DNA of 63,744 nucleotides, filler included, from Reclinomonas americana ATCC 50394 (lineage: Eukaryota), in the NCBI GenBank assembly GCA_048213135.1. It is 9 parts of 5 records of this genome, joined end to end, with 100 filler letters (N's around TTAATTAATTAA, not from the genome) between each part and the next. Parts side by side here need not be neighbours in the genome. Positions count along the whole stretch, not along the records: positions 1 to 4,594 come from PS015710.1; positions 4,695 to 10,191 come from PS015710.1; positions 10,292 to 17,504 come from PS015710.1; positions 17,605 to 30,314 come from PS015711.1; positions 30,415 to 39,030 come from PS015711.1; positions 39,131 to 54,560 come from PS015712.1; positions 54,661 to 57,013 come from PS015714.1; positions 57,114 to 62,465 come from PS015714.1; 1 more part is not named here. One strand, written 5' to 3'. The notes below the pieces were generated by a model that saw nothing but the letters and a program-made list of their open reading frames with translations, was not told the origin of the DNA and searched no databases. Of the stretch, positions 837-63,432 are shown in pieces (position 1 is the first letter of the stretch; each line of letters opens with the position of its first letter). Position numbers and translations under genes: made by a program.

Positions 837-3800
837 ATGAGCGTTCGGAAGTGGTCTGCCAAAGAGGTCCCTCATTCACCACCCCCTTCCTCTCTCTCCT
901 CCACACACATGCTCACCGCCACACAGCTGCGCACGTTGGAGTCGCTCTTTGCAGAGGATGCATCGCGCACCGACTGGGTCAGCCTGGCCGAGACGCTGAG
1001 AGCGCCCGTCTCTCAGATCGCCACGTGGTTTGAGGTTCTCTCTCTCTCTCTCTCTCCCTCCTCTCTGTTGTATCTTGCTTTCGAGAGGCATGCATTGATC
1101 ACGCGATGCAGAAACGAAAGGCGTTCGGATCGCCGAGCAGTGTGAAATCGCGCGATCGCGATATTCCTCCACCCGAGGACAGCGAGCCTCCACAGAAGCG
1201 ACGACGCACATCGCTGCAGATGGAGAACAGCAGTGACGACGATGAAAAGGGCGGAGGAAAGAAGAAGAAAAAGGAGAAGGTGAAGAAGGAGGAGGACAAG
1301 AAGATCAGCTCGCCACCGCAGGTCGCCAAGAGACCGCCTCCTTCGGCAGGCACGCGCAGTCGACGGCGATCGACGGATGCTGGGTCGTCGGCGAAGAAGC
1401 CGCTGAAAGTAGTGGAGAGCGATGAGGAGGAGGTGAGCGCTTGTCGCACGCGGGTTCGTGTTCTGTGGTGCTGATTGGTGTTTGGTGTGCAGTACGACTC
1501 GGATGACAGCGATGCGATGCCCATGCCCGAGGAGGGCTGGCCGTGCCTGAAGGGCATCTGGGTGACCGATCCCATGCCGGAGAAGCAGACGCCGTCGCGC
1601 AAGTACTTTGAGGTGTTCACCAGGGATGGAGTTGCGTGCGGTTTCCCCCCTGCGCGCTTGCTGCTGGCGATGCGGGTGTTAATGACACAAGGGCGAGTGC
1701 AGGTGGTGTACAAGATCGGCCAATTTGTGATGATGAAGAGCGGACTGCCGGAGCCGTACGTGGCGCGCATCGTGTCCATCTTCACCATGCGCGACTCTGA
1801 TGGGGAGCGTGAGGTGCGTGTACGGGAACGATGTGTCGCACCGAGTGAGCCCTCTTGATTGACTCGAATGCAGGCGCATGTCGACACCGAGTGGCTGTTC
1901 CAGGTTGCCGATGCCCCGGCAGCCGATGGTGGATTCTACAAGGTACCGTCCTCACTCCATGGTGCGACGCACTGCGCGGTTCGCTAAAGCCCACGTGCTG
2001 CAGGCGTGTCGACACGAGGTCTTCATCTCGCACGATCACAACGAGAACGAGGCCGAGTTTGTGGAGGGCCCGTGCACCGTGACCACCATCAGTTGTCGCC
2101 ATCCAGCCGACCGACGCTTCGCCAAGTTGTGCGAAAAGGCCGATCGAGCACAGTTGAGTCGCGCGGTCGCGGTGTTGTCACTCCTTCGCCAACCGACTGA
2201 CGCTGGCACGCGCGCAGGTACTTTGCGCGCTTCATGTACGACGCTGCCTCGCGCACACGCAAGCTGCTGTCGGCGGTGGAGGGCTTCAAGGCCGACATGA
2301 GTTCGTTGTCCCTCCGACTCGTTGTCGCGATCCGTCGCTCACTCTCCTGGTCTGCAGCGCTGGAAGATGCTGCTGGTGTGGCTGACAGTGAAGAGGAGGA
2401 GGACGGTGATGACGACGATGGTGATCGTGCTGGTGGCGGTGGTGGGGACCGCGGTGCTGCGCGGGGCATGGATGTTGACGGGCAGCCGGGCCACGGCGAC
2501 GATGCCGCGCACAGTTCGTTGACCGACACTTGTTGGTCTTGCCGCACGTGTGGACTCAGTCAATTCTTGTGCAGGCATCTCGGCCGTGTACCAACAGGCG
2601 CGCTCCCTGCTGCACATTTCGGTGGTCCCCGATGTCTTGCCGTGTCGCGACGTCGAGCGGAAACACGTGTTGCGGTATCTCACGCAGGCGCTGGATGCCA
2701 AGCTCGGCGGCGTGTTGTGTGCGTCGCCTTTCTTGCTTCTTGTCTTGGCATGCTGATGCGGTTGTGTTGACACGCGCCTGCCGCACAGACATTTCTGGCA
2801 TGCCGGGCACAGGCAAGACGGCCACCGTGCACGAAGTGCTGCGTCGACTGCGTGTGAGGCAAGAGCAGGGAGTTGCGTAAATGTACTTGTGTGTGCCATT
2901 GTGCGTCGCAGCCTCTCATCCGTTGCGGTGATGCACAGAAAGTGCCTCCGTTTCAGTACGTGGAGATCAACGGCATGAAACTCGTCGAAGCGCAGCAGGC
3001 GTACACTCTCCTTTACAAGGCATTGTGTGGCAAGGCCGCTGGCCCTGGACCAGCTCTCGAGGGCCTGACGCGCCACTTTAACAGTCGCGCGGCCAAGCTG
3101 TCGTGCTGGTGTGTGCCGCTCGCCACAGCATTCGTGTATTCTGCGTTGCACACTCACCTTGGCTCAGTGTGGTTCTTCTGGACGAAATCGACGAGATTGC
3201 CTCGCGCAACATCTCGGTGCTGTACAATCTGCTGGACTGGCCGCGGTTACAAAACTCGCAGCTGATCGTCGTCGGCATTGCGAATACGATGGATCTGATT
3301 GAGCGACTGTTGCCGCGACTGGCCAGTCGTGCCGACATTGAGCGACTGCCCTTCAAGTCGTACTCGTATGATCAGATCAAGGCAATTGTGCATTCGCGGC
3401 TCGGTGGCATCGAGGCATTCAAGGACAAGGGTCTCGAGCTGTGCGCACGAAAGGTGGCCAGCGTGTCTGGCGACGTGCGGCGAGCGTTGGAGATTTGTCG
3501 GTGTGTGTGTGTATGTCGTGAAGAGCGTTTTCCAGTTGCGCATGCACTCATTGTGCATGTGGTCAGGCGTGCCACGGAGCTGGCGGAGCACATGGCCCGC
3601 GAGGCACGCATCGCCGATCGCGAGTTCGATCCCGACGACAACGGCATCGGCACGGACCTCATTCAGCGCGTGATCCAGGAGTTCTTTGCCGAGTCAGCGG
3701 TGCACTACATTCGCGAGCTGCCGGTGCTGCAGAAAGTGGTGCTGGCCGCGTCGGCGTGGGTCGCCCGCACCGGCAACTCATCGGTCGTGTCCGTGCGCAA

Positions 3801-4186
3801 AATGCTGGATCGCGCCCGTGACACGGCCCTGCAGTACCATCAACATCAGCAGCAGCAACAGCAGCAGCAATCCAACCGGCTTTCCGACTCTGCGCTGATG
3901 CAGCCGCAACGCGTACTGCCACCACCGGCAACGCTGCTGCGGTGTGCCGAGGCGCTGGTGAGCAAGAACCTCATGGAGTTGTTGTCGTCACGAAGGTGAG
4001 AACGCGAAATGGGAGAAAGAGAGAGCGTGCTTGCAGTTTGTTGACGGTGCGCCTGACTGCATGCGACGCGCTGACAGCGAGAGATATCCGTTCATGTCGC
4101 GACACGACAGCGTGCAGCTGCTGGTGGATCGTGACAATGTGCAAGACGCCCTTCGCGATGAGGACTGGCTGACGAGGCTATTGTAA
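837..4186 (+). CDS. ORC1: Origin recognition complex subunit 1 (homeodomain-like N-terminus, BAH, AAA+, winged helix), multi-exon
   Basis: BAH-like segment (YKIGQFV..PYVARIVSIF..HEVFIS), LPCRD.E, Walker A LYISGMPGTGKTATV, YVEINGMKL, Walker B VVLLDEID, VLYNLLDWP, GIANTMDL, ARKVASVSGDVRRALEICRRA; stop TAA 4184-4186. Confidence 0.93.
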
Positions 4187-62369: not shown

Positions 62370-63432
62370 CTGCACAGGGGAGAGAGAGGGAGAGAGAGGT
62401 GAGGGAAGGGAGGGAGGGGAGGGAAGGAAGGAGTGGAAGGAGGGAGCGAGGGAAGGAGTGCAAGGNNNNNNNNNNNNNNNNNNNNNNNNNNNNNNNNNNN
62501 NNNNNNNNNTTAATTAATTAANNNNNNNNNNNNNNNNNNNNNNNNNNNNNNNNNNNNNNNNNNNNGGTGAGGGAAGAGGGAGAGAGGGAGGGAGAGGGGG
62601 AGGGAGAGAGGCAGAGACAGACACACACAGCGCGAGGAGGAGAGAGCAGCGAGATAGAGCAGACAGCGTGGAACAGACTAACGCGCGCACAGACACACGA
62701 GGAAACATGAAGGCACACGCACATACACACGCGCAAAGTGAGACAGATCGAGTAGAGGATGACACACAAACGCACGCACAGACAGGAGGAAACATGAAAG
62801 GCACACGAGCAAACACACGCGCACGCAAAGGGAGACAGATCGAGCAGATGGCGTGGAACAGACTAACGCACGCACGAAGGCGAGGAAACACAAAGACACA
62901 CGCAAACACAGGCACATAAGAGGGAAATTGAGTAGAGGGCGGGGACAGACTCACGCACACACGAACAATCAGAAGAAAACACACAAGCACACACACAGAG
63001 AGAGACACACGAGAGAGGGGACGCACGCATGAACAACAAAAGGAAACACACAAGCACGCGCACAGAGAGAGACGCGAGAGAGAGATATCGCAGAGAGCTG
63101 GTGACTGACCAATCACACAGCGAAACAGAGACACACGTGTACAAAGAGAGAGAGAGAGATGGATTGGATGTCGAGGGGCAGACTATCGCACGCACATGAA
63201 ACGTGCACAAAGCGAGATTGTACGATCTTCCAGCAAAAGCAGCAAGCTGCATTGCTTCTATACCTCTGCGAAATACATAACAGACTCCAATACTTTCTCC
63301 CCTCCTTCTGTTTTCCGACTTCAGAAGCTCTCCAGAAGCTCTCCTTCCTCGACCTCCACTCGTCTCTCACAGATCTCATTCTTTGACTCCTCTCCTTTCC
63401 TCCCCTCACTTCTCCCTCTATCGCTACGCAAC

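Follow-up and report, generated by a model that had tools for sequence, protein, structure and literature searches.

Many introns of Reclinomonas americana ATCC 50394 are predicted to begin with a fixed heptamer, GTTGCGT or, less often, GTTGCGC. We found this in a stretch of 63,744 bases ("the window") that joins nine parts of five records of assembly GCA_048213135.1; the DNA is that of a nuclear, intron-dense eukaryotic genome with short introns. Judging from the sequence, we put the probability that GTTGCG[T>C] is a genuine and abundant class of 5' splice site at about 85–90%. As a rough figure, the class accounts for 13–18% of the introns in the window (about one in six), and it is present in at least 12 genes. 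Intron positions +1 to +7 alone define it, independently of whether the exon ends in G, and the machinery that acts on the branch site and on the CAG acceptor is probably common to these and the other introns. The initial annotation of this DNA had proposed a widespread donor class with T at +3 and the conserved G moved to +6. All 26 of the positions it listed carry the motif on the expected strand (24 GTTGCG and 2 GTTGAG, most of them GTTGCGT), and the existence of the class, with a conserved T at +7 as well, is borne out by shuffled sequences, by a gene model that is blind to donors, and by homology.

GTTGCG occurs 40 times on the plus strand and 38 times on the minus strand of the window (for comparison, GTGCGT occurs 48 and 46 times and GTGAGT 36 and 46 times). 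The full heptamer GTTGCGT has 31 matches, versus a mean of 9.34 (standard deviation 2.87, maximum 18) in 100 dinucleotide shuffles, none of which reached 31. If the third base of the heptamer is left free (GT[N]GCGT), then T is found 31 times, G 11 times, C 9 times, and A twice. Inside annotated genes, 24 of the GTTGCGT matches are in the sense orientation and 2 are antisense; one of these two is at 16673, where the strand of the gene model is wrong.

We tied the motif to introns with a gene finder that had no knowledge of donors. It was a generalised hidden Markov model (HMM) with three-periodic coding states and with introns of 35–300 nt that run from GT to AG only, and it was self-trained on the window after being seeded with open reading frames that have a high G+C content at the third codon position. 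When the donor model was "GT" alone, GTTGCG was the top non-repeat hexamer and began 12 of the 231 predicted introns. We also considered a high-confidence set, with introns of 40–140 nt, flanking exons of at least 45 nt with a positive coding score on both sides, and learned models for the acceptor, the branch site, and intron length. Without a donor model, GTTGCG began 9 of the 83 introns in this set, where 0.9 were expected (p = 3.4e-7), and GTGCGT began 6. In a locus-level version, every in-frame GT..AG pair between two fixed exons competes (each locus has 6.1 candidate donors on average). Here GTTGCG took 11.1 of 87 loci without a donor model (0.95 expected) and 16.0 after expectation-maximisation on a table of hexamers; for GTGCGT, the commonest ordinary donor, the corresponding values were 6.4 and 7.3. 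Among the donors with T at +3, positions +4 to +6 were GCG in 11.1 of 25.6, versus 78 of the 1341 GTTNNN words in the window (5.8%), so the bias towards G(C/A)G that had been proposed for such donors holds for GCG. A crude search for a branch-plus-acceptor pattern 3' of every GTNNNN did not discriminate among them.

Homology gives a more direct view of where the junctions lie. For four genes (HDAC, adenosine kinase or ADK, ORC1, and CDK), we built profiles from homologues and scored all of the in-frame GT or GC..AG candidate junctions. Together with the continuity of Pfam profiles across introns in two other genes, homology puts the exon–intron boundary at the motif's GT for seven GTTGCG sites (2872, 11739, 12756, 14148, 16673, 36815, and 45493). 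At HDAC 36815, GTTGCG was first of 42 GT or GC candidates, at 178.5 bits, and the next (172.1 bits) was a GC donor 3 nt downstream. At ADK 14148, it was first of 35 candidates (141.0 bits, versus 135.5 for a GC donor and 130.9 for GTACAA), and HMM positions 85 and 86 are contiguous across the junction. It was also first of 36 candidates at ORC1 2872 (83.5 bits; the next, a GC donor 3 nt downstream, had 77.3), first of 22 at CDK 11739 (87.2 versus 86.0 bits), and first of 9 at CDK 12756 (102.4 bits, versus 99.2 for a GC alternative). At these five sites, the GC donor that lies 3 nt into the motif trails by 6.4 (36815), 5.5 (14148), 6.2 (2872), 2.0 (11739), and 3.2 bits (12756). For the remaining two sites, the Glu_cyclase_2 profile at 16673 runs from position 42 through a split codon to 44 (the match to the upstream exon has an E value of 0.028), and the Pkinase profile at 45493 runs without a break from 55 through a split codon to 57, residue 3 of the downstream exon falling on position 59. 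When the scan was freed of any splice-signal constraint, it was base-exact at HDAC 36815 only; the other junctions were blurred and lie in weakly conserved stretches.

Homology also places one GTTGAG junction, at ADK 13896, where GTTGAG was first of 30 candidates (68.3 bits, versus 57.6 for the next). This supports the original inclusion of GTTGAG in the class, but only marginally: just two of its 16 occurrences in the window were proposed as donors, and GTTGAG is at most a minor variant of the class.

Several observations weigh against the class or against our estimate of its size. The margin at 11739 is just 1.2 bits. At 36425 and 37265, both in the HDAC gene, GTTGCG outscores the other GT donors, yet alternatives with a GC donor exceed it by 3.8 bits in each case (29.4 bits for a GC..GAG alternative versus 25.6 at 36425, and up to 81.5 versus 77.7 at 37265); these alternatives drop a few poorly conserved residues. 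The gene model is noisy and was trained on 64 kb, and at about half of the 87 loci the donor chosen cannot be classified, with many of these donors misplaced or on the wrong strand, which is why the share of 13–18% is a rough figure. Also, the 24 introns that we compare with the class below were picked by hand.

The class has a compact anatomy. Across the 31 GTTGCGT sites, conservation is confined to +1 through +7, with none outside. To rate individual sites, we scored the context of each GT as exon, intron, and exon, and we call a site donor-like if it lies above the 90th percentile (8.1% of all GT sites pass); this site-centred score is a relative measure only, and it also rewards GT sites that happen to be near real introns. 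By this measure, 19 of the 31 GTTGCGT sites are donor-like, as compared to 2 of 22 for GT[ACG]GCGT, 1 of 12 for GTT[ACT]CGT, 2 of 20 for GTTG[AGT]GT, and 9 of 47 for GTTGCG[ACG]. The last group comprises GTTGCGC (7 of 26), GTTGCGA (2 of 9), and GTTGCGG (0 of 12), and some of the GTTGCGC matches, inside a single coiled-coil exon, are not donors. The class is thus a rigid heptamer, GTTGCG[T>C], whose substitutions at +3 to +6 are rarely donor-like.

The exon side is where the class departs most from the other donors. In the locus-level analysis without a donor model, G was at −1 in 0.3 of 11.1 GTTGCG donors but in 16.2 of 25.3 GTRNG donors. Among the first-ranked donors in the homology scans, it was at −1 in none of six class donors but in eight of ten others, and G precedes 2 of the 31 GTTGCGT occurrences. 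Because G precedes only about one fifth of GT sites in general, the usual enrichment is missing, which is not the same as a clear depletion. The donors outside of the class are degenerate on the intron side and yet nearly always have the G at −1; they include GTGAGT, GTGGGA, GTGCGT, GTTTGG, GTAATG, and GTGTGT, and degenerate donors of this kind lie at 11877, 12060, 12300, 12476, 14497, and 3109 (all on the plus strand). The description of the class as an ordinary donor with one T added is too simple, given its rigid heptamer, which is nearly always GCG at +4 to +6, and its lack of the −1 G of ordinary donors.

Three smaller observations concern the motif and its relatives. ORC1 has two further apparent donors with T at +3, both GTTCGT (2301 and 2514, plus strand), which keep the ordinary register and thus the G at +5. 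A suspected donor in SEC24, gca|GTTTCGT (52705, plus strand), would amount to GTTCGT with one more T, and it again has no G at −1. After the heptamer, A is scarce at the 31 sites: three have it at +8 and two at +9, versus about 22% in the window. This may reflect base composition alone or a motif that extends weakly past +7.

The 3' signals of class introns resemble those of the other introns. We compared 26 GTTGCG[TC] introns with the 24 others. All 26 resolved class introns start with GT and end with AG. The acceptor is CAG in 24 of 26 class introns and in 20 of 24 others. A branch-like YTSAY is present in 24 of 26 class introns, where its median distance to the 3' end is 18 nt, and in 20 of 24 others, where the median is 15.5 nt, and the class uses the same branch-like motifs, CTCAC, CTCAT, and CTGAC, as the other introns. 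The class introns are 58–89 nt long with a median of 69.5 nt; the median of the others is 64 nt. With an in-frame GT..AG and a putative branch site, the class introns look like U2-type GT–AG introns. U12-type introns have the 5' motif RTATCCTT and the branch motif TCCTTAAC near the 3' end. The class shares with them a rigid, extended, and purely intronic 5' motif that is independent of the exon end, but all 26 of its 5' ends are GTTGCG[TC] and not RTATCCTT, and its branch motifs are those of the other introns and not TCCTTAAC. Since the branch site and 3' end are shared with other introns, the class is not a separate type of intron by its 3' signals. We also considered a recent family of introners. 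After the first 8 nt were trimmed, blastn-short gave weak matches for 10 of 325 pairs within the class, 34 of 624 pairs between classes, and 5 of 276 pairs among the others. Because class introns do not resemble each other once those 8 nt are removed, they are not a recent introner family.

How might such a donor be recognized? We modelled its pairing with U1 small nuclear RNA (snRNA) as ViennaRNA duplex energies, which ignore U1C, pseudouridines, other proteins, and the checks by U6 and U5. With the canonical U1 11-mer, the 31 GTTGCGT sites have a mean energy of −0.75 kcal/mol, versus −2.5 kcal/mol for 1500 random GT sites (an area under the curve, or AUC, of 0.27), and in this model the 31 sites do not form a stable shifted or bulged helix with the canonical AUACUUACCUG. 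For the occurrences of two ordinary donors, the energies are −7.9 (GTGAGT) and −3.5 kcal/mol (GTGCGT). Hypothetical U1 ends do better. With an ACGUAC-type U1, in which positions 5–6 are changed to GU, the class reaches −5.3 kcal/mol in a shifted register (AUC of 0.71 versus random GT sites), and the other donors reach −8.2 kcal/mol (AUC of 0.88). With an ACGCAAC-type U1, which is one base longer, the class reaches −10.9 kcal/mol (AUC of 0.98), the other donors have an AUC of 0.75, and GUGCGU pairs with one U1 base bulged.

We consider it nearly an even bet that the class is read by a non-canonical U1, that is, by a U1 whose 5' end is other than ACUUAC. Such a 5' end would base-pair with +3 to +7 or with +1 to +7 of the intron, and it is predicted to have a G opposite the C at +5. 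It could take one of two forms. An ACGUAC-type U1 would pair in a register that is off by one position; a one-base-longer ACGCAAC U1 would have GUUGCGU as its perfect partner and GUGCGU as a bulged one. We more tentatively propose that either the U1 of this organism has been rewritten or a second U1 of the ACGCAAC or ACGUAC type exists beside the standard one. In that arrangement, GUUGCGU would be perfectly paired and independent of the exon, and G|GUGCGU and G|GURNG would be mismatched or bulged and would lean on the G at the exon end. The initial annotation had offered two mechanisms, a bulged register of U1 and U6 or a variant snRNA. The modelling favours the variant snRNA, or a mix of the two, in the form of a U1 with G opposite the +5 C and either a shifted register or an inserted base.

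These proposals face some resistance. The modelled U1 ends are hypothetical and the duplexes omit U1C, pseudouridines, and proteins. To our knowledge, eukaryotes hardly differ in the 5' end of their U1. Furthermore, the preprint by Roy and Bowser (2022; 10.1101/2022.06.08.495308) reports a standard U1 in Thecamonas and in the Mamiellales despite their GYGCGY-type donors, and therefore the prior favours a canonical U1.

A canonical U1 is the strongest competitor to a variant one, although we think it doubtful. The donors would be real, with the U at +2/+3 bulged or with the register shifted by one nucleotide (so that +1 G pairs with C9, +6 G with C4, and +7 U with A3), and the weak helix would be stabilised by U1C or other proteins, with U6 and U5 proofreading later. 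With its G at +6 and T at +7, the class does mimic the +5 G and +6 U of GTGCGT, and, besides the GYGCGY-donor lineages just mentioned that keep the canonical U1, there are precedents for shifted pairing. Shifted and bulged registers between the 5' splice site and U1 were reportedly described in human cells by Roca and Krainer in 2009 and by Roca and coworkers in 2012. In Tan et al. (2016; PMC4856993), non-canonical registers, including shifted ones and the +2/+3 bulge, are proven in human cells and validated for 1.5% of 201,541 sites, with 54–68 sites for the +2/+3 bulge. The human sites are like the class in having GU plus an extra U with the conserved G and U displaced by one, and in keeping the GU as the site of cleavage although the register of pairing changes. 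They differ in being rare (the 54–68 bulged sites compare with about one intron in six here) and in pairing well with canonical U1 via AAGU or GAGU, whereas the class has a fixed GCGU and, in our model, pairs poorly.

Three results from the window itself speak against canonical pairing. The predicted pairing is weaker than that of random GT sites (−0.75 versus −2.5 kcal/mol). A weak bulged site should need the −1 G more than GTGCGT does, but the class needs it less. And GTTGAGT should pair better than GTTGCGT (for model sites, −3.8 kcal/mol versus −0.6 kcal/mol with C at −1), and yet GTTGAGT is rare, with four occurrences of which one is donor-like. A bulged or shifted reading by a canonical U1 predicts that GTTGAGT is a better site than GTTGCGT and that such weak sites rely on the −1 G, and both are opposite to what we observe, so the bulged canonical U1 is the weaker of the two mechanisms first suggested.

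A general feature of donors might also be invoked for a canonical U1. In Parker, Fica, and Simpson (2025), the donors of animals and plants divide into exon-side (AG//GUNNN) and intron-side (NN//GURAG) types that are anti-correlated, and this split is general. As in the split they describe, donors in the window either have a −1 G with any intron sequence or have a strong intron motif with any −1 base, and by analogy the class looks like the intron-side type. It differs from GURAG in that GUUGCGU has C at +5 and G at +6 and is fixed along seven bases; read in the normal register, it offers no +5 G for pairing with the ACAGA box of U6.

Lineages with altered U1, among them Archamoebae in which U1 and the donor reportedly co-evolved, offer another comparison. 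According to Roy and Bowser (10.1101/2022.06.08.495308), Entamoeba has a U1 with AACAAAC and GUUUGUU donors, Mastigamoeba has a U1 with ACGUAC whose G lies opposite the +4 C of GUGCGC, and both a standard and a modified U1 are reported for Physarum. The donor of Entamoeba is like the class in being atypical, having U at +3 and favouring U at +7, but it is a single consensus that covers about 88–90% of the introns, which are few in that intron-poor genome. The class described here coexists, in an intron-dense genome, with a larger set of degenerate donors that depend on the −1 G and from which it is offset by one base. An Rfam scan of the window gave zero families at the gathering score. A literature search for GTTGCG, GTTGCGT, GUUGCG, or GUUGCGU as a named splice motif returned no paper, just primers and unrelated uses, although logos that appear only in figures cannot be searched.

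The other explanations are less probable. If the GU of the class is intrinsically weak for U1, then a sequence-specific protein or another RNA might bind UUGCGU inside the intron and recruit the spliceosome. This is improbable: it would account for a rigid heptamer that fits canonical U1 poorly and works independently of the exon context, but there is no known candidate factor, and the motif always starts with the GT and has nothing conserved past +7, which marks it as the splice site proper and not a nearby enhancer. It is still less probable that the junctions are misplaced (for instance, that the true donor is the GC at +4/+5 and GTT is exonic) or that the excess of the motif has nothing to do with splicing. 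A shift of 3 nt would preserve the frame, and GC alternatives do outscore GTTGCG at 36425 and 37265, but the five HMM scans with GTTGCG in first place all give a lower score to the GC at +3 nt, the Pfam profiles run without a break across 16673 and 45493, and the invariant GT has an in-frame CAG partner in 24 of 26 introns, as in GT–AG introns. Finally, it is very unlikely that the class descends from a decayed introner-like mobile family that carried a GTTGCGT donor (an account of origin and not of mechanism), since the 26 introns without their first 8 nt are dissimilar and neither terminal repeats nor 3' parts in common were seen, even though such a relic would explain the indifference to exon context, the uniform donor, and the narrow range of lengths.

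The individual sites vary in how well they are placed. The ORC1-like gene (plus strand) has GTTGCGT introns at 1631..1702 and 2872..2938 (the latter from the ORC1 HMM scan) and a GTTGAGT intron at 2153..2217 (95.9th percentile of the context score), where read-through is impossible. The intron at 1631 is 72 nt, in frame, and stop-free (96th percentile); the BAH profile begins at residue 2 of the next exon but is weak (E = 0.069), so homology does not fix this junction, and a plant-dominated ORC1 profile and Pfam's BAH gave no usable constraint on 1631 or 2153. If the intron at 1631–1702 were retained, it would insert 24 residues right before the BAH domain. The NUP35-like gene, which has a Nup35 RRM, has a GTTGCGT intron at 5685..5753 (plus strand; 99.9th percentile) that cannot be read through and whose donor is used by the gene model. 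Another intron with GTTGCGT as the gene-model donor is at 8244..8310 (plus strand; 99.7th percentile) in the MMR_HSR1 GTPase gene, with a Pfam match on the next exon.

The CDK gene (plus strand) has GTTGCGT introns at 11739..11810 and 12756..12817, both placed by HMM scan (99.6th and 99.8th percentiles), and a further GTTGCGT intron, with a gene-model donor, at 12985..13054 in its C-terminal tail (98.3rd percentile). In the adenosine kinase gene (plus strand), the ADK HMM scan placed a GTTGAGA intron at 13896..13979 and a GTTGCGT intron at 14148..14228. The GTTGCGT intron of the glutaminyl cyclase gene is at 16599..16673 (minus strand) and rests on profile continuity. The SUN-domain gene (plus strand) has five introns whose donors are in the gene model: four with GTTGCGT at 20507..20595, 21094..21163, 21580..21655, and 21722..21793 (88th, 93rd, 94.9th, and 91.7th percentiles), and a GTTGCGC intron at 21881..21948, for which the gene model also uses the acceptor. 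A candidate GTTGCGT donor lies at 21979..21985 (plus strand; 85.8th percentile); the gene model pairs it with 22026, but the acceptor is uncertain.

A membrane-protein-like gene has a GTTGCGT intron at 35196..35256 (minus strand; 99.2nd percentile), with both flanks open and read-through impossible. In the class II HDAC gene (plus strand), the introns are at 36425..36488 (GTTGCGT; 94.6th percentile), 36815..36887 (GTTGCGC; first in both the unconstrained and the GT/GC scans), 37265..37323 (GTTGCGT; 99.6th percentile), and 37702..37759 (GTTGCGT, a gene-model donor; 92.4th percentile). The lectin-domain gene (plus strand) has a GTTGCGT intron at 42307..42374 (97.5th percentile; gene-model donor) and a GTTGCGC intron at 43416..43475 (gene-model donor and acceptor). 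On the minus strand, a protein kinase gene has a GTTGCGT intron at 44420..44507 (99.9th percentile) and a GTTGCGC intron at 45416..45493 (100th percentile; profile continuity). In the N-terminal region of SEC24 (plus strand), GTTGCGT introns are at 52341..52403 (gene-model donor and acceptor, in low-complexity coding sequence) and 52429..52498 (gene-model donor; 94.7th percentile).

The remaining sites are candidates. Three of those in the initial annotation have low coding context: 6289..6295 (plus strand; GTTGCGT, in a low-complexity context at the 31st percentile), the GTTGCG at 49034 in SEC24 (plus strand), and the GTTGCGT candidate intron at 33047..33109 (minus strand) in the first exon of the cytochrome b5 reductase-like gene, which has a good acceptor (+7.2) but is at the 66.8th percentile. 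Two more GTTGCGT candidates, both on the minus strand with an open upstream frame, lead into gaps: 32956..32962 in the same reductase-like gene, with NAD_binding_1 downstream, and 54709..54715 in a protease propeptide exon. For two minus-strand GTTGCGT candidates, no acceptor was assigned: 61176..61182 in a coiled-coil gene (97th percentile), which is 5 nt upstream of a gene-model donor, and 63426..63432 in the RanBD gene (91.8th percentile), whose upstream exon stops at position 106 of 122 in the Ran_BP1 profile. Overall, the earlier list of donors holds at the junctions that homology fixes and is weakest at these low-context and gap-bound sites, at 63432, and at 36425 and 37265, where GC donors score higher. 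Eight members of the class are additions to it: 8244, 12985, 21094, 21722, and 42307 on the plus strand, and 35256, 44507, and 45493 on the minus strand, of which 45493 is also fixed by homology.

Of the window's bases, 5,670 are N, in 29 runs, and G+C is 56.7% of the rest. The parts are joined at 4595-4694, 10192-10291, 17505-17604, 30315-30414, 39031-39130, 54561-54660, 57014-57113, and 62466-62565, each join being 44 N, TTAATTAATTAA, and 44 N, which gives a stop in all six frames. The joins and 21 further runs of N interrupt several genes, so part of the introns and exons is absent from the window. Most of the gene names that had been proposed were upheld by Pfam matches on single exons or by searches for homologues. 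Exon by exon, Pfam identified Nup35 RRM, MMR_HSR1 GTPase, PfkB / adenosine kinase, Glu_cyclase_2, Sad1_UNC, NAD_binding_1 (in the cytochrome b5 reductase-like gene), an L-type lectin domain, protein kinases, the Sec23/24 zinc finger and trunk, and Ran_BP1. Homologue searches confirmed ORC1, class II HDAC, adenosine kinase, and a PITAIRE-type CDK. The top identities in protein searches were 39–44% for ADK, 56–64% for an ORC1 exon, and 66–81% for the HDAC core, none of which is close.

A few other features of the window are worth recording. The adenosine kinase gene has one intron of 634 nt (14497-15130, plus strand, gag|GTAATG) amid introns of about 60–90 nt, and with 262.5 bits this intron ranked first in the ADK homology scan. 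In the SUN-domain gene, one large exon (22841-23494, plus strand) encodes tandem GNATWA(A/S) repeats, which amount to runs of N-x-T sequons. The open frames at 34840-35540 (minus strand), which contain the GTTGCGT intron at 35256, resemble a multi-pass membrane protein; the gene model had put a dubious low-complexity gene on the plus strand there. Long simple repeats, (CA)n, (GA)n, and poly-Lys/Glu-coding, are at 4695-4810, 6667-7472, and 32600-32790, and they are part of the reason that GTGTGT-type "donors" are in the output of the gene model.

For annotation, donor models built on position weights will miss or misplace the introns of this class. Our own gene model read through the in-frame intron at 1631 and misplaced those at 2872 and 14148, and therefore annotations of this genome and of its relatives would carry systematic errors. 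For splicing itself, it is a textbook constant that U1 reads the 5' splice site in a fixed register. The known departures are either rare, like the shifted and bulged sites of human cells, or replace the whole consensus in an intron-poor lineage, as in Entamoeba. If the class is real, it would serve as a natural experiment in how the task of fixing the site of cleavage is divided among U1, U6, and U5, and it would bear on the co-evolution of snRNAs and splice sites where introns are numerous. If U1 has been rewritten, or if there is a second U1, then this organism would have a natural two-register system of 5' splice sites in an intron-dense genome.

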